From Chiloscyllium plagiosum (taxonomy: Eukaryota), in assembly GCF_004010195.1 (NCBI RefSeq), contig NC_057719.1, positions 5,589,258 to 5,653,257 on the forward strand: 64,000 nucleotides of DNA, given 5' to 3'. The first letter of the stretch is position 1. Every line of letters begins with the position of its first letter. The notes under the pieces are model-generated. The model did no database searches and had not been told where the DNA came from. It worked only from the letters and a program-made list of their open reading frames with translations. This document shows, one piece after another, positions 20,922 through 47,204 of this stretch. The position numbers were made by a program, and so were the translations under genes.

Positions 20922-21142
20922 CTGGTAGAAATGGCTGAAAATGTGTTGCTGGAACAGCGCAGCAGGTCAGGCAGCATCCAGGGAACAGGAGAATCGACAT
21001 TTCGGGCATAAGCCCTTCTTCAGGAACGTCGATTCTCCTGTTCCCTGGATGCTGCCTGACCTGCTGCGCTGTTCCAGCAACACATTTTCAGCTCTGATCT
21101 CCAGCATCTGCAGACCTCACTTTCTCCTGGTAGAAATGGCTG
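20922..21142. mobile_element. PLE-derived fold-back element (family A) with 16-bp TSD
   Basis: TSD ctggtagaaatggctg at 20922-20937 and 21127-21142; ~60-bp inverted arms; hammerhead core on the minus strand at 20996-21023. Confidence 0.88.
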
Positions 21143-21989
21143 TTCATGTTTGAAGTTATTATCCCTATTGAATGTAGTTATCATGCGCCTTTTGTTTGGA
21201 GTACACAGTCTCTTTAAAATTTCAACTTTATTGATCACAGATTGGTGTCTCTGAGGTGCCTTACAGGTTTCTGCGCAGCCACACAATTTAGCTGAAACAC
21301 TGTCCATAATCCCTTACTTTATATGGACTTAAGTGTTGTACCTTATTGAAGGCTTCTGCAAATCCAAATATATTACCTTTTTACCTACACACTAGTAATG
21401 TTGAAAATTGTGCTATGTTTCTATCAGTGCTTTGGTTATCATGGATTATCAATTGCCAAATGTTTAAATCAAATTTCCCAATCTGTTTTGTCAATTCACT
21501 TCTGATACCTGTGTGTTTGACTTTATTCAAGCTCAGTGCAGAAATATGTCAGACTAAAATTTGACATTGACTTTGAGAGCATTATGGTCATTATTTTTCA
21601 TAAAATTACAGATTACTATGAGGTTACAATTGCATGAGACACGATTGCAAATACTCTTTTCTCTGGTTGATTCCAAATTTGTTGATGTAATGTCCTGGGA
21701 AATTGTCTTTTATGAATTTGACCTCTAATTTACTCTCATCAATTTGAGTTGTCCAGGCTATATAATGATTAAGTTTCCACACATTTTAGTTTTGTTATGT
21801 TCTGTTCTTTTCTTAATTGACACTCTGTTCAGCTACTGCTGGGACTTCCTATATTATTCCTGTGGATGTTTGCTCCCAGTTGATTTGGTTCTTACCTTTA
21901 AGCATCCTGATTCTGCTTTCTACAATCTGTACCAGGATTCTTCTTATGTCATCACTATTTTCCGTATTATTGGGGCTACTTCCCTCCAT

Positions 21990-22405
21990 CACTGCTTTAT
22001 GAAAGGCTTGTCTGTTGAGGATAAATTGCACAGAACTAGAGTTTAGAAGCGTGAGTGGACATCTAATTGAGGTATATGAGGTGCTAAAGAAGATGTAAAG
22101 CAGATGTTTCCCCTTATGGAGCAATCGCAAATAAGAGGCCACAGTTTTAGGATAAAGTGTAACAGGTTTAAAACAGAGAAGAAGAGGGATTATTTCTCTC
22201 AGTATTGTGAATCTATGGAATCTGTGCAGTGGACAAAGAGACACTGCATGATTTTTAATTAGTAATGGTTTAAGAGGTTTTGGAGAATGAGCAGGAAAGT
22301 GGAGCTTAAGCCAAAATGAGATCAGCTATGATTCTATTAAATGTCAGAGCAGGCTCGAGGGGCTCAATTGCCAATCCTCTTCCTGGTACTTAGGTTCTTA
22401 TGTAC
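21990..22405 (+). mobile_element. Old CR1 3' fragment
   Basis: gagtttagaagcgtgagtggacatctaattgagg...tgtgaatctatggaat. Confidence 0.7.
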
Positions 22406-22507
22406 CTTTTTGAAACATTAGTGCACTGTATTATTTAATTCCCAACTTTGGTCACCAAAAACGCAGGCTGCTGCTACTAGTTAATAAATCAAACCCTTCT
22501 ACCTCTA

Positions 22508-22910
22508 TAAAAGCAAAATACTGTGGATGCTGGAAATCTGAAATTAAGCGGAAAGTGCGAGAGAAATTCAACAGGTTTGGCAGCATCTTTAAAGGAAACA
22601 AACGGTTAACGTTTCGAGTCTGACTTCAGAACTGAAGGAGACTCACTAAAATAAAACAAAGAACTGTGGATGCTGGAGATCTGAAACAAACAGGAATTGT
22701 TGGCAAAGCTCAGAACAGTTCTGAAGAAGGGTCACAAGACTGAAACGTTAACTCTGTTTTCTCTGCTGCCAGACCTGCTGAGTTTTTCCAGCAGTTTCTG
22801 TTATTGTTTGTCTGAAGAAGAGTCATATTGGACGCGAAACATTAACTGTTTCTTCTGCACAAATGCTGCTGAATCTTTTGAGTTTCTCCAGCACTTTCTG
22901 TTTTATTCCT
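22508..22910. mobile_element. Cluster of older PLE-derived pLTR/fold-back remnants
   Basis: tgtggatgctgga motifs in inverted arrangement with ctgctgagtttttccagca; ctgaagaag...gaaac cores at ~22721 and ~22812. Confidence 0.7.
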
Positions 22911-23129
22911 TTGATAGCTGTTTGTGGCATTGAAGTACCTTTGATTTTTAACTTTTTACCATTTTTCTCTGATTTTACTTTACTCATTGCTGCATTAAAC
23001 TTTGACCCTTCTTGTCACACTGCTTATCTTTACCCAAATCGCCACTTTCAGTCTGTGCTACAAGCTCACTTACCTTGTTTCATATACTGTGTGTATTTAA
23101 GTACAGTACCCTTAGTATACAGCATCCTA

Positions 23130-23590
23130 TTTGCATGCCCACTTGTCTGTCCTAGGCGTCCTTCAATGCTCCAGCGAATCACGGTGCAAACTGGACGAAC
23201 AACATCTCATCTTCAGATTAGGCACTTTACAACTTTCTATGTTTAATATTGAGTTCACCGCCTTCACTCACTCCCATTTCTTTAAGCTTTACTTCTTGCA
23301 TTTTCTGTCACTGTTTCCTCTCTCCCCTCACTCTACTCGTGGGGCTATCCATTCTTTCCAGTTTGGTAGTTAAACTCACTATTGTTCTCTCATTGTCACA
23401 TTACGATTGCTTAATCTGAACTAACAACACCCTTTCTCCCCCAGCAATCCAACTCTCACTATTGCCTAAATGCTATCTCCTCTACATTAACGTCTGCTCT
23501 GATGAAGAAACTTCTAGATTCAAAACGTTAGCTTGCACTCTCTCTACGGTTGCTGTCTGACTTGCTTGATTTCCAGCATTTTTTGTTTTC
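23130..23590 (+). mobile_element. Old Penelope-like 3' fragment
   Basis: CKLDEQHLIFRLGTLQ, then a degenerate ctgatgaag...caaaacgtt pLTR. Confidence 0.7.
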
Positions 23591-23849
23591 ACCTTCAGTC
23601 CTACATTGACTGTCCCTTTCTCATAGTTGCCCCCTCATCTCCTGTGCCTGAAGTTAGATTCCTGATCCTTTCCTTACTCTTTTACTTGTTCTGGAAACTT
23701 TAATAACCACTCCTGAGCCCTGCCCCATATAACAAGTTTCAAGTCCTTGTGACTTTAATTTATTTTGATTTGCGACATCAGTTCATCTGCCTTGTTCTGA
23801 ATGCTTCATGCATTCCAATTCTACCAATGTCTTGTAAATGTAAAAGATC

Positions 23850-24465
23850 CCACGGAAATCCACATCAGGGAGACAGGACGCCAACTTGCAGAACGTTTCA
23901 GGAAACCTCTCTGGCATACATGCACCAAACAACCCCATTGCCCTGTGGCCGACCACTTCAATTCCCCCTCCCACGCCATAAGGACATGCAAGTCCTGGGC
24001 CTCCTCCACTGCCAAATCAAAGTCCCCCGACAACTTGAGGAAGCACCCCTCATCTTCCGCCTTGGGACCCTTCAATCACACAGCATCAACATTGACTTCA
24101 TTAGTTTCCAAAGTTCCCCTTCCCCACCTCATCCCAGATCCAGCCCTCCAACTCGGCACTACCCTCTTGACCTGTCCTACCTGTCCATCTTCCTTCCCAT
24201 CTTTTCGCTCCACCCTCCCCACCAACCTATCTCAATCACACCTGACTTGCATCTACATATCGCCTTCCCAGCTACCTCCCCACCCCCACCCCCACCTTCC
24301 TATTTATCTTTCAGTCCCCTTCCCTCCTCCATATTCCTGATGAAGGGCTTATGCCTGAAACACCGACTCACCTGCCCCTTGGATGCTGCCTGACCTGCTG
24401 CACTTTTCTAAGGCCATACTTTTTGACTGTGATCTCTAGCATCTGCATTCCTCACTTTCTCCTAG
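23850..24465 (+). mobile_element. Penelope-like 3' fragment (GIY-YIG and pLTR)
   Basis: HIRETGRQLAERFRKPL...ADHFNSPSH; pLTR with cctgatgaagggcttatgcctgaaac. Confidence 0.85.
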
Positions 24466-24859
24466 TCACTAGGAAAGAAAGGTGAAGGTGTAATTCCTGA
24501 ATCTGAGCCAACAATTAACCTTAAGCACCACTTCCAAAAGCAGTTTACATTATTCATTCAAGGGATAGGACTTGAGCCAGCATTCATTGCCCATTCTTCT
24601 TGAACTTCTCCATGTGGAATAAGTTGATCCATAGTCTTGTCAGGAAGGTTATTATCTAATCAAATGTCTCATTGTTTTCAGAATCTTTTTATGTGGAAAT
24701 CAAATACCCTGTTTTTGCTACATCTGTAATATGGCTGTGCAGTGTTATTTGCAGATGTTATGTAACCAGATCACATTGTGACAAGACACAACACTGAAGA
24801 CAAAATTAATCTTTCACTTTGGTATCTGAATATAGCTTTCATCAATTAAATTATATTAG

Positions 24860-25750
24860 AGCATAACAGAAATAGGCCATTTAGCCCCTTAAACTTGCTG
24901 TGCCGTTCACGTAGATCACTACTGATAATCTGCCTCAGTGCCAGTTTCCTGCACTGTACTCCATATCACTTGAATCTTTAATGTTGAGTAATCTATCAAT
25001 CTCTGACCTGAACATATTCAATATCTGATCTTCCACAGCCCTCTAGAGTAGAAAAATCCAAAGATTTACTAACCTATGAGTGAAGAAATTCCTCCTCATC
25101 TCTGTTCTTAATACCCTACCTCTTATTCTGAGACTCTGTCTCCTGGTTCTTGCCTGGCTCACGGGGTGCTCAGCAACCATCCTTTCCATATTTACCTTGT
25201 TAAGCCCTATAAGAATTTTGTAGGCTACATTCTTCTCTACTCCAGAGACTATCAACCTAAACCCTACAACCTTTCCTCATAGTGCAATCCTTTTGCCAAA
25301 GGAATCTATCTGGTGAACCTCTCTCTATGGCAAGGATATCTTCCTGAGATAAGGAAAGCTACTGTACACAGTAGTCCAGATCAGGTCTCATCAAGGCTGT
25401 ATGCAATTGTAGGAAGATCTCTTTACTCCAGTACTCAAATTCTGGTGGTTTAAATACCATCATACCAATTAGCTTAATATTTGCAACTGTACTTACATGT
25501 TAGCTCTCAGTAATATATGAACAAAGATATCCCAGATCTCTGAACATCAACACTTCCCAATCCCGTATCCTTTCAGAAGTAATCTTCAATGTTTCCTAAC
25601 AAAGTGGATAATTCCACATTTTTCCATATTATATTCCATCTGCCATGATCTTGCCCTCTCGCTCAGCCTGTCTAAATCACCTTGCAGCCATTTTGTATCC
25701 TCCTCACAACTCCTTCCCACGCCAGATTTTGGATCGTCAGCAATCTAAAA
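24860..25750 (-). mobile_element. Old CR1
   Basis: Minus-strand RTEMRRNFFTHRLVNLW. Confidence 0.75.
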
Positions 25751-27111
25751 GGACTGCAGAGTGGCACTTTAAAAAGGAAACTGCTTTACCGGGCTCTAGT
25801 GTATGTATAAGACAGATTGTGATAATATGACCAAAGAGAAGCTTCCGTGTAATTGTAAGGTCGTGGATAGTAAATGTGTGAAGAAGCAGTATTCATTTCT
25901 TACTTCTCCAGTCTATTACTATGCTGCAAAGGGAAATGTAAGAGAAAAGGCAGATTCTCAATTATCCATTGAGAACCATGTAATACTAAAATTACTGCCG
26001 GTCAGAGGTCACGAGTCTTTTTGTGAGTTTACTATTTTATCATTCAGTTAAAAGACTGCTTGCTAAATACACATGCCCAAGTTATTCTTACTTGCCTCCC
26101 TTTTAATTACTGTGAATGTTTCTTGCTTCTCTGCTTGGCACTCTACTTGTTAATTCAGGTCAACCGAGTTGCTGTGAGATTTTTTGCTTCCCACCGTGAG
26201 GTGTGCCTCAGAAATTTCATGTGTAATAACAACTGTTAATATTGTTTGATTAGAATTCTTTACCAGGTAGCTCGGAGAGGATGATGTGGTATATCAGCTC
26301 AGGATAAATATTCAGGTCTTGGATTTGAATGGCAAAGCAAAGCCAAACTTTTGCAGTTTATTCCTTGCTTTGTATTTTGCTAATACTTGTGACAATGTTT
26401 CAGCCTTTGTATCCATGGAGACTGATTTTACTGGGTCTTTGTGACTACTATTACTCTTAAAACAAAGCAAAAGCTGGACCCAAAAGTTGGATTCAGTCTT
26501 TGTGTTTGCTCATGACCTGAATGTACAGATGCAGGTGTACACCGATGCCATGATAAGCTGTTTCAAACATTTTGTCCTTTCCTGGAGCAAAGTTTTAAAT
26601 GTTTTAGTGTGGATCACTCTCGCATTTTACCAAGCAACTGATGCAAGTGCTTCAGAAACCCTTGCAGAAAGAGAAAGAAAGGGCAAGGTGTTTTGCTTAA
26701 GTAACAAAAGTGACATGAGAAAAATCTTTCTTCACACAATTAGTGGTTCAGGTCTGGAATACACTACCTGGAATTGAGGTGGAAGTGAGTTCAATTGAAC
26801 CGTTCAAGAGGGTATTAGATAGTTATTGGAATAAAAACAATGCAGAAAAGTACAGAAAAGTCATAATGCTTATTTGGAGAGTTGAAAAAATTACGATGGG
26901 CCAATTTCTCTTCTTGTGCCATACTCTTCTGTGATTCTGCGGTTATGTTCAAAATGGCTACATGACAAATCGTGTCATGTTGTCACTAAATACTGATACC
27001 AAACAATCACTACTTTGCCCATTGACTTTCCAACCATTGGTAAGCAGCTGTCCACATAGAGGTTGCATGGATTAAAATCATGCATGTCTAAATGAACATA
27101 GGGATGACAGA

Positions 27112-27960
27112 GATCACATGGACCAATGGGCTGAGGAGTGGCAGATAGAGTTTAATTTAGATAAATGCGAGGTGCTGCATTTTGGGAAAGCAAATCTTAG
27201 CAGGACTTATACACTTAATGGTAAGGTCCTAGGGTGTGTTGCTGAGCAAAGAGACCTTGGAGTGCAGGTTCTTAGCTCCTTGAAATTGGAATCACAGGTA
27301 GATAGGATAGTGAAGAAGGCGTTTGGTATGCTTTCCTTTATTGGTCAGAGCATTGAGTACAGGAGTTTGGCGGTCATGTTGCAGCTGTACACGATGTTGG
27401 TTAAGCCACTTTGGAATATTGTGTACAATTCTGGTCTCCTTCCTATCGGAAAGATGTTATAAAACGTGAAAGGGTTCAGAAAAGATTTACAAGGATGTTG
27501 CCAGGGTTAGAGGATTTGAGCTATAGGGAGAGGCTGAATAGGCCGGGGCTATTTTCCCTGAAGTTTCGGAGGCTGAGGGGGTGACCTCATAGAGGTTTAT
27601 AAAGTCATGAGGGGCATGGATAGGATAAATAGACAAAGTCTTTTCCCTAGGGTGAGGGAGTCCAGAACTAGAGGGCATAGGTTTAGGGTGAGACAGGAAA
27701 GATAGAAAAGAGACCTAAGGGACAACTTTTTCACACAGAGGGTGGTATGTGTATGGAATGAGCTGCCAGAAGAAATAGTAGAGGCTGGTACAATTGCAGC
27801 ATTTAAAAGGCATCTGGATGGATATATGAATAGGAACGGTTTCAAGGGCAGTGGGGCAAGTGCTGTCAAATAGTACTACACTGGGTTGGGATATCTGGTC
27901 GGCATTGATGAGTTGGTCCGAAGAAGTCTCTTTCCATGCTGTACATCTCTATGACTCTGT
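27112..27960 (+). mobile_element. 5'-truncated CR1
   Basis: ORF 27118-27462: WAEEWQIEFNLDKCEVLHFG...QRDLGVQV; 3' tail ctctatgactct. Confidence 0.92.
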
Positions 27961-28237
27961 AACCCTATTTAGCTTTCTTTCCCCAATCCAGATTTTGGAC
28001 ATCGCAAAATATAAAACTAGATTATGGTGACTGAATTATTTGTAGAAGCAAACTTTCGTTTCAGTTTTGGTTTAACTATATCACCAAGTTGCTAGAAAGA
28101 CAAGTTTTTGTTTAAAGAAGGTGTGAATTCTTACTGGTTGTAATAACTTAGGAACCCGGACTGGAAATATCATTTAATGGTGAATGCCAAAACAGAGCCA
28201 CTATTCCTGGGTTTGCCTATTTTTTAAAATCCGAAAT

Positions 28238-28605
28238 TAGAGGCATAGAGATACATAGCACGGAAACAGATACTTCCCTCCAACTTGTTCATGTCAACCA
28301 TACATCCTAAATAAATCTAGTCCAATTTGCCAGCATTTGGCCTATATCCCTCTAAACCCTTTCTATTCATATACCTATCCAGATGCCTTTTAAATGTTGT
28401 AATTGTACCAGCCTCCACCACTTCCTCTGGCAGCTCATTCCATATACGCACCACCCTCTGTGTGAAAAAGTAGCCCCTGAGGTCCTTTTAAAATCTTTCC
28501 CCTCTCACCTATATCATCTAGTTTTGGACATCCCATCCTGTGGAAAAGCCCTTGTCCATGTACCCTATCCATGCTCCTCATGATATTATAAACTCTTTAT
28601 AAGTG
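28238..28605 (-). mobile_element. CR1 3' end
   Basis: Reverse complement of the CR1 C-terminus and 3' UTR. Confidence 0.85.
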
Positions 28606-29052
28606 ACCTTTTAACTATCAACCACCACCAGTAAACCATGGGTCCACTTTATGGTTTTTCATTGGAGGAGGGAGTTGATATATGCTAATGAACCAGTTCA
28701 GAGGTGCTATTACACTGCTCTGGAGCAGATGAGAATTGAAACCAGGTCCTAGCTCAGAGGTAGGTAAACAGCCACAAACAGAGCATTATCTCCAGAGCAT
28801 TAGCTTAGGTCTCTGAGGTACTAGCTCAGTAACTAATATTATCATCACTCAGGGTTGTGCAGGGCTGCTCTCTCCTTAGAGAAAAGTGACCGGTATAATC
28901 TTGTCTCAGGTGACGGGTGAGGTTAATCAACCTTCACGGTGTCCTCAGTTGGTGCAGAAATTGAACCCATACTGTTGATATCTGTCTGCATTACAAACCA
29001 GGTGCTTCACATGCAACTTAACAACATTCTACGGAAAAACTGCCTGTGACTT

Positions 29053-29135
29053 TGGTAGCAGTGGATTTTCAGACCACAACTTAATAGTCACTCAAGTTTA
29101 AATTCTGCACCTTAGACCACTTAGCCACATTGCTA
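29053..29135 (-). pseudogene. Decayed tRNA-Leu-like sequence
   Basis: The minus strand reads tagcaatgtggctaagtggtctaaggtgcagaatttaaac...aatccactgctacca. This aligns by eye to type II tRNA-Leu (GGTAGCGTGGCCGAGCGGTCTAAGGCGCTGGATT...CCCACCGCTGCCA). The T-loop/B box is degraded. Confidence 0.65.
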
Positions 29136-30555: not shown

Positions 30556-30732
30556 TAGTTTGAAAACCACCTATTTCGAGATGCTATTACACACCACAGG
30601 AGCAGATAGGACTTGAACCCAGAATCTCCTGGGTCAGAGATAGGGACACATCTACTGCATCACAAGGCCCAGGTGTTGAGTTCAGGCTGGGCAGGCCAAT
30701 TCCTGTTAGCAAGGGAACTCCACAAGGGATAT

Positions 30733-31947: not shown

Positions 31948-32595
31948 ATTCAGCCAATTATGAGAAAGTGAGGACTGCAGATGCTGTTGAGTCAAAGTCA
32001 AAACATGTGGCACTGGAAAAGCACAGCAGGTCAAGCAGCATTCGAGGAGCAGGAGAATCGACATTTCAGGCATAAACCCTTCATCACTGAGCAACCCCAC
32101 TGTCCTGTGACCAACCACTTCAACTTCCCCTCCCACCCCCCCAAGGACATGCAAGTCCTGGGCCTGCTCCTCTGCCAAATCCAAGCCACCCGACGACTGG
32201 AGGAAGAACACCTGTCCTTCCACTTGGGACCCATCAACCACACAACATTAACTTCACGAGTTTCCAAATCTCCCCTCTCCCCACCTCATCCCAGATACAA
32301 CTGCCCAAATCGGCACCGCTCTCTTGACCTGTCCTATTTGTCCATCTTCCTTCCCACCTATCTGCTTCACCCTTCCCACTGACCTATCATTATTACCCCC
32401 ACCTGTATCCACCTATCACCTTCCCAGCTATTTTCTCTCCACCCCCACCCCACTCTCCTATTTACCTCTCAGCCCCCTTCCCTCCTCCACATTTCTGATG
32501 AAGGGCTTATGCCAGAAATATGGATTCTTCTGCTCCTCGGATACTGCCTGACCTGTTGTGCTTTTCCATTGCCACATTTTTCAATTCAGTCAATT
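31948..32595 (+). mobile_element. Truncated PLE with 5' inverted pLTR and ~12-bp TSD
   Basis: Inverted pLTR (~31961-32086) joined to the GIY-YIG tail (NHFNFPSHPPKDMQVLG) and a direct pLTR. attcag(c/t)caatt occurs at 31948-31959 and 32584-32595. Confidence 0.85.
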
Positions 32596-32706
32596 TTGTA
32601 AACACCTGTCTCCAGCTCCTTTTACCAAATTGTTTGACTGAATATGCTATAGTCCATTTTCCCAGGCACAAATTAGCATTAACTTAAAAGCCCCTGCCCA
32701 CCTAGG

Positions 32707-32944
32707 GATACCTGATAAATGTCAAAAAGTATGGTGCTGGAAAAGCACAGCCGGTCAGGCAGCATCTGAGGAGCAGCAGAGTTGACATTAACTCTTCTTT
32801 CCTGATGAAGAACTGATGCTTGAAACATCGAGTCTCCCGCTCTTTGGATGCTGCCTGACCAGCTGTGTTTTTCCAGCACCACACTTTTCGACCCTGATCT
32901 CTAGCATCTGCAGACCTCAATTTCTGCTAATTGATACTTGATAA
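32707..32944. mobile_element. PLE-derived fold-back element (family A)
   Basis: Inverted arms tggtgctggaaaagcacag / ctgtgtttttccagcacca; TSD gatac(c/t)tgataa. Confidence 0.8.
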
Positions 32945-34989: not shown

Positions 34990-35173
34990 AACCAAGTAAA
35001 CAATGATTTGGAGATGCCGGTGTTGGACTGGGGTGTACAAAGTTAAAAATCACACAACACCAAGTTATAGTCCAACAGGTTTAAGTGGAAGCACATTGGA
35101 AACTAGTGTGCTTCCAATTAAACCTGTTGGATTATAACCTGGTATTGTGTGATTTTTAACCAAGTAAACAATG
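34990..35173. mobile_element. PLE-derived fold-back element (family B) with 16-bp TSD
   Basis: aaccaagtaaacaatg at 34990-35005 and 35158-35173; ~50-bp inverted arms. Confidence 0.85.
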
Positions 35174-35453: not shown

Positions 35454-35669
35454 ATCCCAAACACTACGGCGAAAATGAGGACTGCCGATGCTGGAGATCA
35501 GAGTCAAGGTTAGAGTGGTGCTGGAAAAGCACAGCAGGTCAGGGAGCATCCAAGGAGCAGGAAAATCGACCTGATCAAGAGCTTTTGCCCGCAACGTTGA
35601 TTTTCCTGCTCCTCGGATGCCGCCTGACCTACTGTGCTTTTCCAGCACCACTCTAACCTATCCCAAACA
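35454..35669. mobile_element. PLE-derived fold-back element (family A, reverse orientation)
   Basis: Arms ggttagagtggtgctggaaaagcacag / ctgtgcttttccagcaccactctaacc; TSD atcccaaaca. Confidence 0.85.
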
Positions 35670-36032
35670 GTAGTCAAACAGGAATACTGTTCATGGAGGT
35701 CGCAGTGGCAGGAAACCTGCTCATTCTTTCCATCATTAACTCAGAGGCACTGAGTTTATTAAGCAGCTTTGCTGCTGCCCTTGAACAGAGCAGCCAGCTC
35801 AGCACAGGCTTCTGGTCTGTACATGGTTTGATACGAAGCTCTACATTATATTTATTAATTTGACATTGAGGAAACTGTAACATTTTCTTTGTAGCAGAAA
35901 CTGCACCTGCCAAAATTTTGTTTTAAAAATTGTATGGTTTTTCCAGTGATTTAGGATGTACGCTTTTGATCTACACAAATTGAAAGAGCAGTTTTTTCTC
36001 TCAGTTCCTCCTTGTCTTCCATAATTATTCTA

Positions 36033-36372
36033 TGATGTGGAGGTGCCAGTGTTGAACTGGAGTGGACAAGGTCAGAAGTACACAATACTAGGTTATACAG
36101 GGCAACCTTGATTATCTGAACATCGATTATCCGAATTTTGGATTATCCGTACAAGATCTCAAAGTCCCGATGCTTTGGATTATCCGAACAAGATACTGCC
36201 AACTCATGTCATTCACATAATCGAGGTTGTTCTGTAGTCCGACAGGTTTATTTGAAATCACAAGCTTTCAGAACTCTGCTCTTTCATCAGGTGAAGTGAC
36301 TTGGCAAAAGAGCAGCCCTTGTAATTTCAAATAAACCTGTTGGGACTATGATCTGGTGTCGTGTGACTTCTT
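36033..36372. mobile_element. Family-B fold-back element interrupted by a MITE
   Basis: The consensus aggttaTAgtcc is split at the TA by the MITE. The minus strand carries cctgatgaaagagcagagttctgaaagctt. Confidence 0.75.
36098..36234. mobile_element. Tc1/mariner (Tigger-like) MITE
   Basis: TA-cagggcaaccttgattat ... ataatcgaggttgttctg-TA; related to 30395-30555. Confidence 0.82.
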
Positions 36373-36851
36373 ATGTAGTTACTCCAATCTCAGAACATTA
36401 TGATGAAGGTTCATGATACATTGTTGTTATTTGTAAACTTGGGTTCTAAAGTGAAAATAATTATGTATAGCCTTAAGTCTGATTTATGTTTTGATATTGT
36501 GTATATGTTAAGAAGGCAAGGACAGGACAGTTTAGTTTCATTTTAAATTAATTCTGTGAGTGTTACTGGTTTCTCTGGAAATGTGTTTACTTGCATTTAT
36601 ATGAGACATTTCAAAAAGATTGATATTTAATTGTGGTGAAAGTTCAGTGCTTCATAAACAAAGTGTATAATTATTTATTCTAAATATTAATGAGGGAAGC
36701 AAATATCCTATAGCAGAGTTTGCAAATGATACAAAAATAGATGGAAAGACAAATGGTGAGAATAACACAAAGAGCCTGCAGATGGATAAAGAGTGGGCAA
36801 AAACTTGGCAGATGAAATATAATGTCATAATGTTGGTAGGAGCAATAAAGG

Positions 36852-37429: not shown

Positions 37430-38012
37430 ATTGGCTTTCATTGGCAGGGGGAATGAGTTTAAAAGCTGCAGCTCTATTCAGCCCTGGTTAGACCACACTT
37501 AGAATATTGTGTTCACTTCTGGTCCCCTCACTATAGGAAGGATGTGGAAGCTCTAGAGAGAGTGCAGAGGAGATTTGCCTGGGCTGGAGGGCAGGTCTTA
37601 TGAAGAAAGGCTGAGGGAGCTAGGGTTTTTCTCACTGGAGCGAAGAAGGGTAATGGGTGACTTGATAGAGGAGTATAAGCTGATGAGAGGCATCGATAGA
37701 GTGGATAGCCAGAGACTTTTTCCCGGGGTGGAAATGGCTATCATGAGGGGGCATAATTTTAAGATGATTGGAGGAAGGTTCAGGGGCGATATCAGAGGTT
37801 GGTTCTTTACACAGAGAGTGGTGGGTGAGCGGAATGCACTGGCAGTAGTGTAGTAGAGTCAGTTCATTAGGGACATTTAAGCGACACTTGGATAGGCACA
37901 TGGATGATAGTAACATGAAGAGGTAGGTAGTTTGATCTTAGAGTAGGATAAAGTGTCGGCACAACATCAAAGGGCCAAAGGACCTGTGCTGTGCTGTACT
38001 GTTCTATGTTCT
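37430..38012 (+). mobile_element. CR1 3' fragment
   Basis: ORF 37575-37853 [23 protein letters not shown]; gttctat tail. Confidence 0.88.
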
Positions 38013-38014
38013 AT

Positions 38015-38198
38015 GTAATTCACCAAGCCTGCACATCTTTGGACTGTTGGAGGAAACTGGAGCAGCCAGAGAAAACTCATGCAGACACAGGGTGAATGTA
38101 CAAACTCCACAGAGACAGTTGCCTGAGGCTGGAATCGTACCATGGTTCATGGCGCTGAGAGGCAACAGTGGTAACCACTGAGCCACTAAGCTGCTGCA
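38015..38198 (-). mobile_element. HE1-type SINE fragment
   Basis: Diverged copy of the 5' part of 36852-37158. Confidence 0.75.
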
Positions 38199-38544
38199 TT
38201 ATGGGAAAAGACTATCGAAAGCTGCAGCACGGAAGGATTTGGAAATCCTCATGCATAAGTCTGAAAAGGCTAAATACAAATTCAGCTGGTAATACAACAT
38301 GGAATATTGGTCTTTATTTCAAAGGAGATGGAGTCCAAAAATAGGGAAGTCTTGCTCAAACTATACAAGACATTAGACAACACCAAGAATACTATGAGTT
38401 GTTTTGGGCCCCTTATACAAGGAAAATATGCTGGCATTAAATGTAGTCCAGAGAAGATTCAATAAATTGATCCCGGTTATGCAAGGACTGTCTTACAAAG
38501 AGGAGCAAAGTGCGTTAGGATTTGTTGGAGTTTAGAACATTGAA

Positions 38545-40295
38545 GGGTACAGCACAGTACAGCCCTTTGGCCCATGATGTTGTGCCGAGCATTTATCTTA
38601 ATCTGAGATCAACCTAACCTACACACCCCTCAATTTACTGCTGTCGTGTGTTTGTCCAGCAGCCACTTAAATGTCCCTAATGTCTCTGTCTCTACTACCA
38701 CTACTGCCAGTGCATTCCATGCACCCACCACTCTCTGAGTAAAGAACCAACCTCTGACATCTCCCCTATTATTTCCTCCAATCACCTTAAAAGTATGACC
38801 CCTTGTGACAGCCATTTCTGCCCTGGGGAAAAGTCTCTGGCTATCTACTCTATCTATGCATCAGTACACCTTGTACACCTCTATCAAGTCACCTCTCTTA
38901 CTTCTTCTCTCCACAATGAAAAGCCCTAACTCACTTAACCTCTCTTCATAAGACAGGCCCTCCAATCCAGGCACCATTCTAGAATCTGCTCTGCACCCTA
39001 TCTAAAGCATCAAAATCCTGCCAATGAGGCAACCAGAACTGGGCACAATGTTCCAGGGTTCCAGGGTTTCAGGATGCAAAGATCATCGCCAGAGGTGCAG
39101 CAATCTCACTCCTTGCTGCCCGTAGTAATCTTGGATATATCTGGTCAGGCCCTGGAGACTTATCTATCTTGATGCTTTCCAGAATTTCCAGTAAATCCAC
39201 TTTCTTAATATCAATCTGTTCAAGCCTATTAACCTGGTACACGATGGTCTCACTATCAATAAGGTCCCTCTCCCTAGTGAATACTGAAGCAAAAAAACTA
39301 ATTTAGGGCCTCCCTCACCTCTTCAGATTCCACTATCCCTGATCGGCTCTACCTATCTCTGATCATTCTGTTAATCCTCACGTAAGTATAGAACACCTTT
39401 GGATTTTCCCTAATCCATCCCGCCAAGGCTTTTTCGTGCCTTTTCCTAGCTCTCCTCGGTCCATTTTTGCATTCTTTCCTAGCCTCCCTGTAATCCTCGA
39501 AAGCTGCGCTAGCTCCTTGCCTCCACCACCTTAAATAAGCTTCTTTCTTCCTCTTGATGAGAAGCCCCTCTTTTCTTGTCATCCAAGGCTCCTTCACCTT
39601 ATCATTCCTTGCCTGTCTCAGTGGGACAAAGCTATCCAACACTCGCAACAAGTGCTTCTTAAACAGCCTCCACATTTCTATTGTGCATTTCCCGTAGAAC
39701 AATTGTTCCAAATTTATACTCCACAGCTCCTGTCCAATAGCAGTGTAGTTCACCCTCCCTGAATTTAATACCTTCCCATACCGTCTGCTGCTATCCCTCT
39801 CCATGGCTATGGTAAAGGTGAGGCAGTGTGGTCACTGCCACCAAAATGCTCTCCCGAGAGATCTGACACCCAGCCTGGCTTGTTGCCCAGCACCAAATCC
39901 AATATGGCCTCCCCCTTGGTTGGCCTATCTACATATTGAGCTGGAAATGTGTGGCTGGAAAAGCGCAGCAGGTCAGGCAGCATCCAGGGAACAGGAGAAT
40001 CGACGTTTCGGGCATAAGCCCTTCTTCAGGAAGAAGGGCTTTCCTGAAGAACGGCTTATGCCCGAAACGTCGATTCTCCTGTTCCCTGGATGCTGCCTGA
40101 CCTGCTGCGCTTTTCCAGCAACACATTTCCAGCTCTGATCTCCAGCATCTGCAGACCTCACTTTCTCCTATCTACATATTGAATCAGGAATCCTTCCTGG
40201 ACACACCTGACAAAATCAACTCCATCCAGACCACCTGCACTAAAGAGGTTCTAAGCAATATTGAGGAAGTTGAAGTCACCCATAACAACAACTTT
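38545..40295 (-). mobile_element. Internally deleted CR1 (3' end plus upstream ORF2/endonuclease region)
   Basis: ORFs 38630-38815(-) and 39349-39804(-) (EPWMT...ENPKVFYTYV); VVVMGDFNF endonuclease motif near 40270. Confidence 0.8.
39924..40182. mobile_element. Young PLE-derived fold-back element with two opposed hammerhead cores and 16-bp TSD
   Basis: TSD cctatctacatattga at 39924-39939 and 40167-40182; ~95-bp near-perfect inverted arms; cores at 40002-40029(-) and 40044-40071(+). Confidence 0.92.
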
Positions 40296-40409
40296 GTTAC
40301 ATCTGCACATTTCCAAGATCTGCTGTCCAATCTGTTCTTCCATCACTTTGCATTTACAAAAATGAGAGGTAACCTTACTGAAACATTCAAGCCTCTTAGG
40401 GACTTGTAA

Positions 40410-41580
40410 GATTAGAAACATAGGAATGAGGAGGCCATTGAGCCCTTCGAGCATGTTTCACCATTCATCACGATCATGGTTGATCGTCCAATTCAGTAGC
40501 CTAATCCTGCTTTCTCCCCATAACCTTTGATCCCATTCGCCCCAAGTGCTATATCTAGCTTCCTCTTGAATACAATCAATGTTGTGGCATCAACTATTTC
40601 CTATGGTATTGAATTCCATAGGCTCAGTAATCTTCGGATGAAGAAATGTCTCCTCTTCTCTGTCCTAAATGAAAATCCCGAATCCTCAGGCCTTGACACC
40701 GGTTCTGGACACATCCACCATCAGGAAATCCTCCCTGCATCTACCATGTCTAGTCATGTTAGCATTTTAAAAGTCTCTATGAGATCCCCCCCTTATTTGT
40801 CTGAACTCCAGCGAAAACAATCCTAACCTAGTCAATCTCTCCTCATTTGTCAGTCCCGCCATCCCTGGAATCAGCCTGGTAAACCTTCGCTACACTCCCT
40901 CGAGAGAAAGAGCATCCTTCCTCAGAAAAGGTGACCAAAACTGCGCACACTCCTCTCTCCCAATTTACAGCCATTCAGGTAGTAATTTGCCTTCTTGTTT
41001 TTGCTTCCAAAGTGAATAACCTCACACTAATCCAAATTATACTGCATCTGCCATTGATTTGCCCACTCTCCCAACCTGTCCAGATCATGTTGAAGGATCT
41101 CTGCATCCTCGTCACAGTTCACCATCCTACCCAACTTGGTATCATATGCAAACTTTGTGATTTTACATTTTGTTCCCTCCATCCAAACCATTAGTATATA
41201 TTATGGATAGCTGGGGGTCCCAGCATCGATCCTTGTGGAACCCCACTAGCTATTGCCTGCCAATTTGAAAAGGACCCATTAATTCCTATGCTTTGTTTCC
41301 TCTCTGCCAACCAGTTTCCTATCCATCTCAATAGAATTCCCTCAATCCCATGTGCTTTAATCTTGCACAATAATCTCTTATGCAGGACTTTGTCAAACTC
41401 TTTCTGTAAATCCAAATATCCCACATCAACTCGCTCCCCCGGTCAGCTTTACTAATTACATCGTCATACAATTCCAGCAGATTTGTCAAGCATGATTTTC
41501 CCTTCATAAATCCACACAGACTTTGTCTGATCCTGCCACTGCCTTCTAAATGCTCTACGACAAAGTCCTTGACAATGAAT
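40410..41580 (-). mobile_element. CR1 RT fragment
   Basis: GFMKGKSCLTNLLE, YLDLQKEFDKV and SGVPQGSMLGP on the minus strand. Confidence 0.88.
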
Positions 41581-42339
41581 ACATTCAAAACAAAAGAACT
41601 GTGAATGTTGAACTTTACCTTCCTCAGTGAGAGCTTACCTCCTTTGCTTTAAGCAGAGGTTGATCATCACGTCATCTCCAAAAGTAGCTTTCCTCAATGA
41701 AAGTTGCATGGATACAGTAATCTCCTTAACTTCAGACAGTCCTGCATTCTGATGACATAGATACCCCAGAGTCACTACTCAGTAACACCCTGGTGCACTA
41801 TGGGTGGCCCTGGTAAGATAACTGAAGCAGTGGCATAGCGTTATTTCATTTCACTGTCCCTGCTACCAACCTGATCTTAAGGTTTTTATTTTTCAGTATT
41901 CCACACACGCAAACTGCCTGCTTGAACTTCCTCTGAGGTTTTGGTATCTCTTTCAGTTAACGACTGCTCACAAAAGTACAGACTTTGAAACCAAAGTCAG
42001 TTCAAAAAATAGGCTCACACACCATTCCCCTGTTGCCCTGTCTAATCAGTGTATTTCATGACAATAAGGAAACGTGACTTTAATTAAGTCTTATTTGAAG
42101 GACATCATGTAACAATGTGCCTGAGTAGCTGGGAGTCTCATGGAATCAGTACCAATATCCCAGTGGCTATCATAGAATCACAGAGCTATTACATTGTAGA
42201 AGGAAGCCATTTGGCCCATCATGCCTGCACTCTATCTGTTATCTAGTGCCAAAAACTAAACTTGTTGGAAAAGCTCAGCAGGTCTGGCAACATCTGTGGA
42301 GAGGAATCAGAGTTCACGTTTCAAGTCTAGTAACCCTTA

Positions 42340-44140
42340 GAATCATAGAGTTACAGAGATATACAGCATGGAAACAGACCCTTTGGTCCAACTCATCCAT
42401 GCCAACCAGATAAGCTAAATAAATCTAGTCCCATTTACCAGCACTTGGCCCATTTCCCTCGAAATCCTTCCTATTCATATACTCATCCACATACCTTTTA
42501 AATGTTGTAATTGTACCAGCCTCCACCATTTCATCTGGCAGCACACACCACCTTCTGCATGAAAAAATTGCCCCTTAGGTCCTTTGTAAATCTTTTCCCT
42601 CTCACCTTAAACCTATGCCCTCTAGTTTTAGACTTCCCCACCCCAGGGAAAAGACCTTGTTTATTCAATCTATCCATGCCCCTCATGATTTTATAAATCT
42701 CTATATGGTCACCTCTCAGCCTCCGACGCTCCAGGGAAAACAGCCCCAGCCTATTCAGCCTCTCCCTGTAGCTCAAACCATCTAACCCCTGTCAACGTCC
42801 TTGTAAATCATTTCTGAACCCTTTCAAGTTTCACAAGTTTTCCTTCCTATAGCAGGGAGACCAGGGCTGCATACAGTATTCCAAAAGTGGCTTAACCAAT
42901 GTTTTGCACAATGACAACAGGACCTCCCAATTCCTATACTCAGTGCACTGACCAATAAAGACAAGCATACCAAATGCCTTTTTCACTATCCTATCTACCT
43001 GGGAATCCACTTTCAAGGAACTATGAACCTCACTCCGAGGTCTCTTTGTTCAGGACTACTCTCCAGGACCTTACCATTAAATGTATAAGTCCTGCCTGAT
43101 TTGCCTTTCCAAAATGCAGTACTACATATTTATCTAACCTAACTCCATCCGCCACTCCTCAGCCCATTGGCCCATCTCATTAAAATCCCATTGTACTCTG
43201 ATGGTAACCTTCTTTGCCATGCACTATACCTCCAATTTTGGTGTTACCTGCAAATTTACTAGCCATTTTTCATATGCTCACAACCAAAGCATTTATATAA
43301 ATGACAAAAAGCAGTGGACTGAGCAGTGATCCTTGTGGCACATGGCAGGTCAAAGGCCTTCAGTCTGAAATGTAATCCTCCACCACCACCCTCTGTCTTC
43401 CACCTTTGAACCAGTTCTGCATCCAAATGGCTAATTTTCTCTGTATTCCATATGATCTAACCTTGCTAACCAGTCTACCAAGAGGAACCTTGTCAAACAC
43501 CTTACTGAACTGAAAATGTGTTGCTGGAAAAGCGCAGCAGGTCAGGCAGCATCCAAGGAACAGGAGAATCGATATTTCGGGCATGAGCCCTTCTTCAGCA
43601 TCGGGCATGAGCCTGAAGAAGGGCTCATGCCCAAAACATCGATTCTTCTGCTCCTTGGATGCTGCCTGATCTGCTGCGCTTTTTCAGCAACACATTTTCA
43701 GCTCTGATCTCCAGCATCGGCAGTCCTCACTTTCTCCTAGAAGAAACGCCTTACTGAAGCCCATATAGATTACATTCACCACTCTGCCCTTGTCAATTCT
43801 CTTCTTATTTCTTCCAAAAACCCAATCAAGTTAGTCAGACATGATTTCCCACGTACAAAGTCATGTTGACTATCCCCAGTCAGCCTCTGCCTTTCCAAGT
43901 ACATGGAACTCCTGTCCTTCAGGATTCCCTCCAGCAACTTGCCCACCACCAATGTCAGGCTCACTGGTCGATGGCTCGCTGGCTTTTCTTTACCCCCTTT
44001 CTTAAATAGTGGCACCACGTTAACCAACCTCCAGTCTTCTAGCACCCCACCTGTGGCTATCGATAATACGGGTATCTCAGCAAGGGGCCCAGCAATCATT
44101 TCCCAAGGTTCCCACAGAGTTCCAGGGTAGACCTGATCAA
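42340..44140 (-). mobile_element. CR1 inserted into an old fold-back PLE remnant (arms ~42250-42340 and ~44141-44265)
   Basis: CR1 ORF fragments 42531-44099(-). The flanking arms tggaaaagctcagcaggtctggcaacatctgtggag and ctccacagatgctgccaaacttgctgagcttttcca are reverse complements. Confidence 0.88.
43495..43758. mobile_element. PLE-derived fold-back element with 15-bp TSD inside the CR1
   Basis: aaac(a/g)ccttactgaa at 43495-43509 and 43744-43758; two opposed hammerhead-like cores. Confidence 0.9.
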
Positions 44141-44423
44141 GGGTGATTAAACCTGAAACGTTAACTCTGATTTGTCTCCACAGATGCTGCCAAACTTGCT
44201 GAGCTTTTCCAGCAGTTTTTGTTTTAGTTTCTGATGTACATCGTCTGCAGTTCTTTTGTTTTTTGTCCAGTGCTAGTTTCTTGATTTTCCCCTGTATTCC
44301 TGCATGTGGTTTCTATGATGTGAGAAAACTGCTCACTGTACAGTACCTCTCACAGAAAGCTGCTCTGTCAGCAGCAAACATTGGCGCAAGTGCAAAATGG
44401 CATATAGATTTCGGCACATAGCG

Positions 44424-46185
44424 TCATAGAGATGTACAGCATGGAAACAGACCCTTCGGTCCAACCTGTCCACGCCGACCAGATATCCCAACCCAGTCTA
44501 GTCCCACCTGCCCATATCCCTCCAAACCCTTCCTATTCATATACCCATCCAAATGCCTCTTAAATGTGGCAATTGTACCAGCCTCCACCACATCCTCTGG
44601 CAGCTCATTACATACACGTACCACCCTATGCGTGAAAAAGTTGCCTCTTAGGTCTCTTTTATATCTTTCCCCTCTCACCCTAAACCTATGCCCTCTAGTT
44701 CTGGACTCCCCGATCCTAGGGAAAAGACTTTGTCTACTTTTCCTATCCATGCCCCTCATAATTTTGTAAACCTCTATAAGGTCATCCCTCAGCCTCCGAC
44801 GCTCCAGGGAAAACAGCCCCAGCCTGTTCAGCCTCTCCCTATAGCTCAAATCCTCCAACCCTGGCAACATCCTTGTAAATCTTTTCTGAACCCTTTCAAG
44901 TTTCACAACATCTTTCCGATAGGAAGGAGACCCGAATTGCACGCAATATTCCAACAGTGGCCTAACCAATGTCCTGTACAGCCGCAACATGACCTCCCAA
45001 ATCCTGTACTCAACACTCTGACCAATAAAGGAAAGCATACCAAACGCCTTCGTCACTATCCCATTTACCACTTCCAAGGAGCTATGAACCTGCACTCCAA
45101 GGTCTCTTTGTTCAGCAACACTCCCTAGGACCTTACCATTAAGTGTATAAGTCCTGCTAAAATTTGCTTTCCCAAAATGCAGCACTTCGCATTTATCTGA
45201 ATTAAACTCCATCTGCCACTTCTCAGCCCATTGGTCCAGATCCTGTTGTAATCTAAAATAACCCTCTTCGCTGTCCACTACACCTCCAATTTTGATGTCA
45301 TCTGCAAACTTACTAACTGCATCTCTTATGCTCGCATCCAAATCATTGGTGTAAATGACAAAAAGTCGAGGACCCAGCACCGATCCTTGTGGCACTCTAA
45401 TATTCACAGGCCTCCAGTCTGAAAAACAACCCTCCACCACCACCTTCTGTCTTCTACCTTTGAGCCAGTCCTGTATCCAAATGGCTAGTTCTCCCTTTAT
45501 TCCATGAGATCTAACCTTGCTATTCAGTCTCCCATGGGGAACCTTGTCGAACGCCTTACTGAAGTCCATATAGATCACATCTACTGCTCTGCCCTCTTCA
45601 ATCTTCTTTGTTACTTCTTCACAAAACTCAATCAAGTTTGTGAGATATGATTTCCCACGCACAAAGCCATGTTGACTTTCCCTAATCAGTCTTTGCCTTT
45701 CCAAATACATACACATCCTGTCCCTCAGTATTCCCTCCAACAACTTGCCCACCACCGAGGTCAGGTTCACCGGTCTATAGTTCCCTGGCTTGTCTTTACC
45801 GCCCTTCTTAAACAGTGGCACCACATTTGCCAACCTCCAATCTTCCGGTACCTCACCTATGACTATCGATGATACAAATATCTCAGCAAGAGGCCCAGCA
45901 ATCACTTCTCTGGCTTCCCACAGAATTCTTGGGTACACCTAATCAGGTCCTGGGGATTTATCCACCTTTAACCGTTTCAAGATATCCAGCAATTCCTCCT
46001 CTGTAATCTGGACATTTTGCAAGATGTCGCCATCTATTTCCCTACAGTCTATATCTTCCATATCCTTTTCCACAGTAAATACTGATGCAAAATATTCATT
46101 TAGTATCTCCCACATTTTCTGTGGCTCAACACAAAGGCCGCCTTGCTGATCTTTGAGGGGCTCTATTCTCTCCCTAGTTACCCTC
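44424..46185 (-). mobile_element. Young CR1 with an open 504-aa RT frame, 5'-truncated
   Basis: ORF 44424-45938(-): NYRPVNLTS, QHGFVRGKS, DFSKAFDKV, VPQGSVLGP, FADD. No endonuclease domain or ORF1. Confidence 0.95.
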
Positions 46186-46950
46186 ATGTGCAGAATGACA
46201 CAAAGACCGGTACCAACATTGCACATGCGCGGACATAGGCACACGAGAAGAATGGCGTGATGATTTCGGTGCATGCACAAAACGAAGCACGCAAACTGAT
46301 CCTCACTGGAATCAGGCTATTGCCAATGGACGTAATGCAATATACTGTTTCCTAATTTTTCAGCTGTCAAAACGCACGCTATCCCAGAACTACCTGTGAT
46401 GTAGTATTTACATCTGTACACAATACTCCAGCTGAGGTTCAACAAATGTCTTGTACAATCTCAATACATTTTTTCGCTGATGTATGCTGTGCCCCTATTT
46501 ATAAGGCTTAAGATAATTTATGTTTTATTAACTGCTGTCTCCACGTGTCCTGAGTCTTAGACTTAGGACCAGACCATCAAGGTGAGATGCTCGGAAGCAT
46601 TACTACACACAAAGAGGTTTGGAACTCTATCCACAATTATTAATGAATGCGTTGTTATGATGTTAGTTTTAACCAGAGATTCATAAGTATTTGTTGAGCA
46701 AAGGTATCAAGTGCTATGAGCCAAAGGCAGATATATGGAGTTAGGACACATATCGGTCATGTTCTCATTCAATGGCAGAACATGCTCAAGGGACTGAATG
46801 GTCTGCTCCTGTTTCTATTTTCCTATGCCCTATAAAAAACTTTTCTCTAATACTCAGGAGTGGCACAGATTGTAAACCTACTTAAAAATGTGAGATATAT
46901 TTTTAAGATTGACCTACATCAAAATAGTCACAATTTTAATCAACCTTGCT

Positions 46951-47204
46951 TTCAAATCAATTGTAGTCGAGAGTGTGGTGCTGGGAAAGCACCGCTGGTC
47001 AGGCAGCATCCGAGGAGCAGGCGAATCAACATTTCGGGCATTAGCCCTTCATCAGAAATGGAATAATTCCTGAAGAAGGGATTATGCCCAAAACGCTGAT
47101 GCTCCTGCTCCTCGGATGCTGCCTGACCTGCTGTGCTTTTCCAACACCACACTCTCAATTCTGATCTCCAGCACTTTCCTCACTTTCTCCTTCAAATCAG
47201 TTGT
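46951..47204. mobile_element. PLE-derived fold-back element with 14-bp TSD
   Basis: ttcaaatca(a/g)ttgt at 46951-46964 and 47191-47204; opposed hammerhead-like cores. Confidence 0.88.

Follow-up and report, generated by a model that had tools for sequence, protein, structure and literature searches.

The hairpins of about 200 bases that recur in this stretch of the Chiloscyllium plagiosum genome are each two 3′ ends of Penelope-like elements (PLEs) set head to head, and they represent the shortest form of an insertion pattern that has already been described. We consider it probable, with some reservation, that each hairpin was made anew, both cut ends of the target being primed at two fixed start sites and the resulting short cDNAs being joined tip to tip. 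The architecture itself is on record (PMC3846280, PMC8557442); what we infer here is the mechanism. Our sample consists of 14 two-armed inserts from a single window, by which we mean the whole 64,000-nt stretch analyzed (GCF_004010195.1, NC_057719.1, positions 5,589,258-5,653,257 of the forward strand).

An initial annotation of the window had listed seven inserts of 180-260 bp. All seven were found where it had placed them, at 20922, 32707, 34990, 35454, 39924, 43495 and 46951, with full lengths (including both copies of the target-site duplication, TSD) of 221, 238, 184, 219, 259, 264 and 254 bp, respectively, and thus a range of 184-264 bp. Folded as DNA they give z-scores of −10.6 to −28.5 (40 dinucleotide shuffles per insert), and they are confirmed as genuine insertions. 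The annotation had treated them as one design, and the design is indeed common to all, but six belong to one PLE family (A) and one (34990) to another (B), and seven further two-armed inserts had been missed. With these included, the design spans four families (A, B, C and D) and insert lengths between 130 and 740 bp, and two-armed stubs are the most frequent PLE form in the window. The arms are unequal, as had been claimed, but the end of the short arm is fixed at the tail boundary and is not a free breakpoint.

Two of the seven belong to the young part of family A. In 20922..21142 (TSD 20922-20937 / 21127-21142) the tail-less arm (20934-21026, minus strand) covers positions −35 to −127, counted back from the 3′ end of the element, and the tail arm (21025-21128, plus strand) runs from −102 to the 3′ end; the arms are identical at 67 of 68 positions. 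In 39924..40182 (TSD 39924-39939 / 40167-40182) a tail-less arm at 39938-40032 (minus strand, −33 to −127) and a tail arm at 40041-40169 (plus strand, from −127) are identical at 93 of 95 positions and flank an 8-nt centre copied from the arm next to it. The older family A insert 32707..32944 (TSD 32707-32718 / 32933-32944) has a tail-less arm at 32721-32789 (minus strand, inner end −102), a 6-nt centre and a tail arm at 32796-32932 (plus strand, inner end −130), while 46951..47204, also older (TSD 46951-46964 / 47191-47204), has its tail-less arm at 46965-47060 (minus strand), a 5-nt centre and its tail arm at 47066-47190 (plus strand). A family A variant, 35454..35672 (TSD 35454-35463, or to 66, / 35660-35669, or to 72), carries the tail arm on the left (35467-35570, minus strand, inner end −99) and the tail-less arm on the right (35570-35659, plus strand, −125 to −39). 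The family A insert 43495..43758 (TSD 43495-43509 / 43744-43758; tail-less arm 43507-43598, minus strand; 13-nt templated centre; tail arm 43612-43743, plus strand) lies within a LINE that has a Pfam RVT_1 match and that we take to be CR1-like. The family B insert 34990..35173 (TSD 34990-35005 / 35158-35173) pairs a tail arm at 35003-35095 (minus strand) with a tail-less arm at about 35101-35160 (plus strand).

The inserts absent from the initial annotation extend this range. An asymmetric fold-back of family A (31948..32598, TSD 13/15) joins a 125-nt tail arm (31962-32086, minus strand) to a tail-less arm of about 495 nt (32092 to about 32587, plus strand) that reaches into the endonuclease C-terminus; 23 of 120 PLE-like proteins match it. 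The earlier label “non-coding” therefore suits the short inserts (0/120 matches for 20922 and 39924, the two of the seven covered by this comparison), but not this insert of the same design. The arms of the long family D fold-back (53153..53890; tail on the left arm; weak TSD, 9/10) extend past the hammerhead into what may be endonuclease coding sequence, and a family D arm compared with the 120 PLE-like proteins matched none. Family B contributes two old fold-backs, one at 59834..60077 (tail on the right arm, degenerate TSD of 13/16, inner ends of both arms at the hammerhead front) and one at 36230..36379 (TSD 8/9, tail on neither arm), and a third at 205..339, with a tail arm at 212-306 (minus strand) and a short tail-less arm at 314-339 (plus strand), for which a search for a TSD found none that was convincing. 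Two apparently nested family C fold-backs occupy 22509..22910, the inner one at about 22646-22811 (TSD 12/14); in both, a tail arm is paired with a tail-less arm, and the inner appears to sit in the hammerhead core of the outer.

That the arms come from PLEs, as had been proposed, is borne out by a broken, 5′-truncated family A element at 8954..11123 (plus strand), which served as reference for the arms and comprises a PLE-type RT, a Cys linker, a GIY-YIG-type endonuclease and a 3′ repeat with a hammerhead motif (11000-11023) and tail; its best match, at 66%, is a Chiloscyllium punctatum protein. Family A arms are 82-90% identical to the end of this element, which is of the older subfamily, and up to 99% identical to a one-armed, 5′-truncated copy at 19890..20457 (plus strand; 99% to the 39924 arm) whose 7-bp TSD candidate is at chance level. 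Pfam returned no family in four of four PLE frames, PDB no match, and Rfam no match at its gathering score; the PLE identity comes from relatives, which carry PF00078 and PF01541, and from tblastn, which spans RT to EN. Between the two domains lies a degenerate Cys linker, its last Cys replaced, which may correspond to the CX2-5CxxC linker of the Neptune/Nematis clade. No coding parent of families B and C lies within the window, and the assignment of B, C and D to PLEs rests on hammerhead, tail and common design. A pattern for the hammerhead core plus stem II matches ten times across the window against 0.14 expected, and every one of these putative hammerheads falls within the elements described here. 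In addition, a 19-nt pattern matched 48 loci in metagenome contigs, of which none aligned with the window over at least 40 nt, and these were discarded as chance matches.

The inserts carry the marks of endonuclease-positive PLE insertion, namely a one-sided tail of 30-40 nt, a TSD and a predicted minimal hammerhead motif. Tails of the seven are 30-42 nt long, and the short arm ends some 33-39 nt before the element 3′ end, that is, without the known PLE “tail”. These ends are tightly placed, at −33 to −39 in the six family A inserts of the initial annotation; none of 1,000,000 uniform draws was as tight (with 31948 entered by eye as −35), and families B, C and D have the same offset. Exactly one tail is present in 13 of the 14 two-armed inserts, 36230 being the sole exception, and two tails in none (P = 0.0009 under independent 50:50 site choice at each end).

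Junction scoring upheld the 10-16 bp TSDs claimed for the seven, with matches of 16/16 (20922), 11/12 (32707), 16/16 (34990), 10/10 or 12/13 (35454), 16/16 (39924), 14/15 (43495) and 13/14 (46951). Six of the seven score at least 10, a level reached by one of 150 random junction pairs, and the weakest, 32707, scores 8.5 against a null 95th percentile of 7. TSDs are weak or absent in 205..339, 36230, 53153 and the outer family C insert, and none of three one-armed copies tried had a TSD above chance. Paralogous empty sites with a single TSD copy were found for two of 11 inserts tried: 20471..20543 (minus strand, 85% identical) for 20922, and 45459..45654 (plus strand, 82% identical), in another copy of the LINE, for 43495. 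Divergence between arms rises with TSD mismatch (rho 0.90, n = 9 of the 14 inserts). The initial annotation had also noted overlaps of 2-4 nt between TSD and inverted arm. The three that it named are exact (gctg at 20934-20937, ga at 39938-39939, aac at 35158-35160), but the other four of the seven tail-less junctions have no exact overlap (4, 0, 3, 0, 2, 0 and 0 nt, P ~0.09), and microhomology at the tail-less junctions is only suggestive. When both junctions of the three inserts with exact TSDs are counted, the overlaps with the TSD are 4, 2, 3, 3, 2 and 3 nt (P ~1e-4, the three tail-end overlaps being read by eye from sister copies). We also considered MITEs, which have terminal inverted repeats out to both ends and a fixed short TSD, and rejected them, as here one arm overhangs by the tail and the TSD varies in both length and sequence.

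The inner ends of the arms also tend to a fixed point. Ten of 14 in family A lie at −123 to −130, the front edge of the hammerhead motif. Hammerhead cleavage was rejected as their source because none of the 14 lies at the predicted cut, which from the motif should follow −97 (nearest ends −99, −102 and −102). As a cause of the cluster near −125, fold-back potential is not specific, and a splice acceptor was dropped because, by eye, no AG stands at a constant position. The initiator consensus is YYANWYY. It occurs 4-7 nt before the hammerhead core in seven of 14 contexts, from three of the four families. This count includes family A copies that are related to one another, and hammerhead helix I would be made of these very bases; of the misses, five arms begin at or after the motif and both family D arms lack it. 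The case for a putative initiator before the core is thus weak. Between the inner ends, no centre recurs among 12 in the window, and those of the near-identical subfamily copies 20922 and 39924 differ; because no two match, de novo formation is favoured, as the initial annotation had argued. Words of 11 nt (39924) and 13 nt (43495) at the centres are exact copies of the neighbouring arm. The tail-less arm extends deeper into the element than its partner in 20922, 35454, 31948, 34990 and the inner family C insert, whereas in 32707, 205..339 and 53153 the tail arm does so.

We propose the following sequence of events. The endonuclease would cut both target strands 12-16 bp apart, leaving staggered 3′ overhangs, and each DNA end would then serve as primer for reverse transcription at one of the two start sites on either side of the 33-40 nt tail, probably under the coordination of an RT dimer. 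The cDNAs would stop early, mostly 0-6 nt before the hammerhead core, perhaps at the RNA 5′ end, and would be joined through matches of 1-4 nt, abortive snap-back synthesis leaving templated centres of 5-13 nt. The hairpins would thus be dead-on-arrival products of autonomous PLEs and not a mobile class. A purified PLE cleaves and extends both strands in vitro, starting at two sites that bound the tail (PMC11167929), and this, together with the fixed tail-less ends, supports dual priming. In the same work, use of the two start sites showed no strand bias, a result that by itself would predict some two-tailed inserts; as there are none here, coordination must be assumed. Also counting against dual priming are the tail-less overlaps, not significant over the seven, the lack of a tail in 36230, and rare variants common to both arms in five of seven family A inserts, which is also expected from snap-back. 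A more specific version, which we offer tentatively and believe less likely to be right than wrong, is a “double strong-stop”: an RT dimer straddling the tail in the 5′-proximal pLTR of its own mRNA would start one cDNA from each target end, one per tail boundary, and the two would run off the RNA 5′ end at an initiator just before the hammerhead and then fuse.

The strongest alternative, which we nevertheless regard as unlikely, is single priming followed by self-primed copy-back, with the second arm clipped at the tail boundary by endonuclease or end-joining and asymmetry arising from later central deletions. It is close to ideas of self-priming and EN resolution in passages of Arkhipova et al. 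(2013; PMC3846280) and Craig et al. (2021; PMC8557442), which lend it support, and it accommodates the templated snap-back words and the shared rare variants; moreover, cDNA ends at −127 to −129 find their best fold-back partner at −99 to −101, the turning point of three asymmetric inserts. Given that 45% of positions allow a 3-bp terminal stem, that match is nothing special, and RT has been measured to start at the tail boundary (PMC11167929). The tail-less arm outreaches the tail arm in the five inserts named above (25 nt in 20922, which is very young; about 375 nt in 31948), so that copy-back of one tail-primed cDNA is insufficient alone and needs an extra deletion per insert. Two joined cDNAs, snap-back followed by annealing, and a perfect palindrome trimmed by asymmetric central deletion would be indistinguishable in the final sequence.

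The initial annotation's alternative of a self-propagating non-autonomous class, in which a few hairpin masters are transcribed and mobilised by PLE proteins with occasional scrambling of the centre, seems to us improbable. Such derivatives of PLEs are known (retrozymes), and the narrow size range and the clustered inner ends would suit a master element, yet no centre is shared, even among three copies of the youngest subfamily (a comparison of low power, within the window only). The arms resemble a one-armed copy of the coding end no less closely than they resemble one another (39924 right arm against 20329: 0/69 differences), the same design exists with coding-length arms, the five tandem-repeat rows include no retrozyme-like unit, and tail-less ends adjoin each TSD with no carried-over flank. 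Slightly less probable still is a two-step origin, the second arm being added to a one-armed copy by insertion, recombination or repair. PLE-into-PLE insertion probably occurs in the window (the family C pair), and the anole PLE, when purified, cuts at its own ORF-pLTR junction (PMC11167929), but a single TSD encloses both arms, arm divergence keeps step with TSD decay, and both arms of each insert come from the same subfamily. L1-type twin priming, in which a second primer at a random internal site of one RNA yields adjoining, non-overlapping segments, fits the TSD length and the microhomology at both ends of the three youngest inserts; it is very improbable since both arms copy the same stretch (54-95 nt of overlap on the element, 7/7 inserts) and the second site does not vary. 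Fold-back artefacts of assembly or library construction, or older repeats taken for TSDs, are scarcely credible when arms differ by 1.5-19%, insert ends coincide with element landmarks and two paralogous empty sites have one TSD copy. Of the earlier interpretation, then, the origin from PLEs, the TSDs and the preference for de novo formation over a master element hold up; its wording in terms of truncation and a twin-priming-like reaction is not supported, and over the seven the tail-less microhomology does not exceed chance. Its view of the inserts as a “direct readout” of integration is fair, but of an architecture already described.

Passages in Arkhipova et al. (2013; PMC3846280), Craig et al. 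(2021; PMC8557442) and Schostak et al. (2008; PMC2377424) describe endonuclease-positive PLE units with an inverted pLTR and a “tail”. Like these, our inserts have a head-to-head, inverted, 5′-truncated copy, a one-sided 30-40 nt tail and a TSD that encloses the unit as a whole (8-10 bp in the rotifer); unlike them, they are two arms alone (65-130 nt each) with no ORF between and TSDs of 12-16 bp. In Poseidon_Ac (Frangieh et al., 2024; PMC11167929) both strands are cleaved and extended in vitro, two RT start sites bound the tail as is proposed here, and the hammerhead lies ~120 nt upstream of the 3′ end, its cleavage being dispensable for insertion. The main text of that paper draws no link from two-strand extension to inverted arms, family A differs from Poseidon in its Cys linker, which looks more like that of Neptune/Nematis, and one tail per insert implies a coordination absent from the in vitro data. 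Schistosoma mansoni has minimal hammerheads that occur in pairs, one on each strand, at distances of 100-700 bp (Cervera and De la Pena, 2014; PMC4209133). These are likewise short PLE-derived pieces with motifs in opposite orientation and are probably the same kind of object, mentioned in passing in the relevant passage without TSDs, tails or breakpoints. The proposed route resembles L1 twin priming (model as set out by Kojima, 2010, PMC2912911; intermediate in bioRxiv 10.1101/2024.12.14.628481) in that both target ends would prime, cDNAs would be joined at short complementarity and the TSD is ~15 bp. It differs in that the segments of an L1 product derive from separate parts of a single RNA with a variable internal site (their non-overlap is our own reading of the model), whereas here one stretch is copied from two fixed start sites. 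Non-LTR retrozymes (bioRxiv 10.64898/2026.07.22.740005) are also non-coding, hammerhead-bearing and pLTR-related, but are head-to-tail tandem units, not single head-to-head pairs with unique centres.

Published views on how PLE inverted ends arise have antisense self-priming at one extreme and endonuclease resolution at the other. The single tail of each insert, an asymmetry that can go either way and a constant inner stop speak for coordinated priming at the two target ends. Were the double strong-stop version true, head-to-head PLE inversions would arise with no need of an antisense template, and the start of transcription and the two priming sites would be legible in each hairpin. Hairpin stubs of this kind are open to misreading as MITEs or RNA hairpins. 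They are ordinary PLE debris, yet they constrain how PLEs form head-to-head inverted ends and a one-sided tail.

The seven fold-back inserts described in the initial annotation (starting at 20922, 32707, 34990, 35454, 39924, 43495 and 46951) are present as reported, with lengths of 184-264 bp and folding z scores of -10.6 to -28.5. Their arms are head-to-head copies of the 3' ends of Penelope-like elements (PLEs), six belonging to family A and one, 34990, to family B. A fold-back scan of the window revealed seven further two-armed inserts: three of family B (205-339, 36230-36379 and 59834-60077), two nested inserts of family C (22509-22910), one of family D (53153-53890) and one of family A (31948-32598) with arms of 125 and 495 nt. 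In all of them the element 3' ends lie outermost and the 5' ends centrally. The inserts had been termed non-coding, which is true of the short ones but is a consequence of shortness only, since the 495-nt arm of 31948 extends into endonuclease coding sequence and is matched by 23 of 120 proteins. Within the family C pair, the hammerhead core of one fold-back appears to have been the insertion site of the other (target-site duplication, TSD, 12/14), a possible sign that the element targets its own repeat. In the family D fold-back, two internal segments of the tailed arm, of about 10 and 100 nt, are missing from the tail-less arm (53632-53720), through template jumps or later deletions.

The window is repeat-rich animal DNA; listed PLE-derived pieces total about 8.6 kb (13%) and LINE pieces, presumably CR1-like, are likewise abundant. 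The closest match to ORF 9088-10113 is a protein of Chiloscyllium punctatum (66%), and relatives of this ORF have reverse transcriptase (RT, PF00078) and often GIY-YIG (PF01541) domains; the host is accordingly probably a shark. By tblastn, a broken PLE can be traced from 8954 to about 10805 across its RT and endonuclease regions, and a 3' repeat then extends to 11123. This copy (8954-11123) and a one-armed copy at 19890-20457 served as family A references, with element positions numbered backwards from the last reference base (-1). Ten minimal hammerhead cores with stem II are present in the window against 0.14 expected, all of them within PLE elements or inserts. Other PLE remnants are a broken RT-to-linker fragment of a further family, with no recognisable 3' repeat (4417-5714, minus strand), and one-armed family C fragments at 42262-42305, 44150-44266 and 62350-62430. 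At 27687-28509, 37923-38622 and 61073-61527, LINE-type 3' ends form inverted pairs with a spacing of a few hundred bases; these are not PLE fold-backs. An ATG-led frame at 20378-20455 (MLPDLLRFSS...), open through the family A tail, could be the true ORF start, since rotifer pLTRs include the first codons.

TSD scores were 16 for 20922, 34990 and 39924, 11.5 for 43495, 10.5 for 46951, 10 for 35454 and 8.5 for 32707, against a mean of 3.8 and a 95th percentile of 7 among 150 random junction pairs, one of which scored at least 10. In-silico excision recovered paralogous empty sites for two of 11 inserts, each with one TSD copy: 20471-20543 on the minus strand for 20922 (85%) and 45459-45654 for 43495 (82%). 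The two arms of an insert differ by 1.5-19%, and the difference is larger where the TSD copies are less alike (rho 0.90, P 0.001) across 9 of the 14 inserts, those with a clear long TSD (209, 36230, 53153 and the two nested inserts being omitted). We infer from the sequence that these are genuine insertions aged in place, not artefacts. The 20922 insert sits in one arm of an older inverted repeat (20471-20543 / 20875-21162; arms of 73 nt with 75-85% similarity, separated by about 320 nt), the other arm of which adjoins a one-armed PLE copy.

In the six short family A inserts one arm ends at the element 3' end and the other at -33 to -39, a clustering equalled in none of 1,000,000 uniform draws (a crude null). 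In these draws the corresponding end of 31948 was included at -35, a value placed by eye, the local alignment having ended at -43. The 30-42 nt absent from these arms is the known PLE tail (PMC3846280, PMC8557442). Thirteen of the 14 inserts have one tail, one has none and none has two (P 0.0009 against independent 50:50 choice); two-tailed inserts would have been detected, because the search was by arm complementarity.

The inner ends of the family A arms lie at -127/-102 (20922), -102/-130 (32707), -99/-125 (35454), -127/-127 (39924), -124/-125 (43495), -129/-128 (46951) and -123/-498 (31948). Ten of these 14 fall at -123 to -130, at the leading edge of the hammerhead core (-124), with P 2e-5 against a uniform 70-140, or 1.3e-4 when each of the six short inserts is represented by its longer arm alone; none lies at the predicted hammerhead cut after -97. 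Several B and C arms also stop at this landmark, and D arms do not. The tail-less arm reaches further inward in 20922, 35454, 31948, 34990 and the inner family C insert, the tail arm in 32707, 209 and 53153. In five of the seven family A inserts a rare variant is present in both arms, and therefore both arms have a single source. As for the centres, those of 39924 and 43495 are copies (11 and 13 nt) of adjoining arm sequence, 32707 and 46951 hold 6- and 5-nt arm copies, near chance, and no exact match was found for the 34990 7-mer.

The simplest account, we infer, is dual target-primed reverse transcription. After a staggered cut, the two target 3' ends would prime at opposite boundaries of the tail, one at its end and one at its start; the two cDNAs would stop early and then be joined, now and then with snap-back synthesis. 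Under such dual priming the head-to-head layout would need no antisense template of the kind proposed for PLE inverted ends (PMC3846280), and the one-sided tail and two-way arm asymmetry would also be explained. A purified anole PLE nicks and extends both strands, with two RT start sites corresponding to the two tail ends (PMC11167929). Sequence alone does not distinguish tip-to-tip joining from snap-back plus annealing, and a perfect palindrome that later loses part of its centre can show a similar asymmetry. A master element or self-propagating class is disfavoured relative to the de novo formation originally preferred, although few copies were compared; among the 12 inserts outside the nested family C pair, none of the centre 24-mers recurred elsewhere in the window with up to three mismatches. 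L1-type twin priming is contradicted, because the arms overlap by 54-95 nt on the element. The initial interpretation as a whole is partly supported.

The three TSD/arm overlaps previously named are exact. In the three exact-TSD inserts both junctions overlap (4, 2, 3, 3, 2 and 3 nt, P about 1e-4; tail-end values taken by eye from sister copies). For the tail-less junctions of all seven the values are 4, 0, 3, 0, 2, 0 and 0 (P about 0.09). Microhomology is suggestive only, because older copies lose exact overlaps by mutation.

PLE pLTRs often contain an intron. In older family A copies a run of pyrimidines closed by AG, some 20-30 nt ahead of the hammerhead core (10975-10990, 24305-24320 and 32455-32475), resembles a splice acceptor. 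Tentatively, the fixed inner stop may mark the 5' end of the RNA: PLE promoters are located in the pLTR (PMC2377424), the anole RT initiates near the ORF 5' end and runs off shortened templates (PMC11167929), and 7 of 14 contexts have an initiator-like word 4-7 nt ahead of the core. Other causes are possible, because the position of an intron end in D. virilis coincides with this landmark (PMC4209133).

An inverted copy, a tail and a TSD all belong to the textbook description of PLEs (see also PMC8969392), and Schistosoma has paired minimal hammerheads on opposite strands 100-700 bp apart (PMC4209133). In the open-access literature we found no paper on the dual-priming model or such PLE stubs in sharks; older papers and Repbase or Dfam notes may cover this. 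The value of these fold-backs lies in the testable constraints they place on PLE integration.
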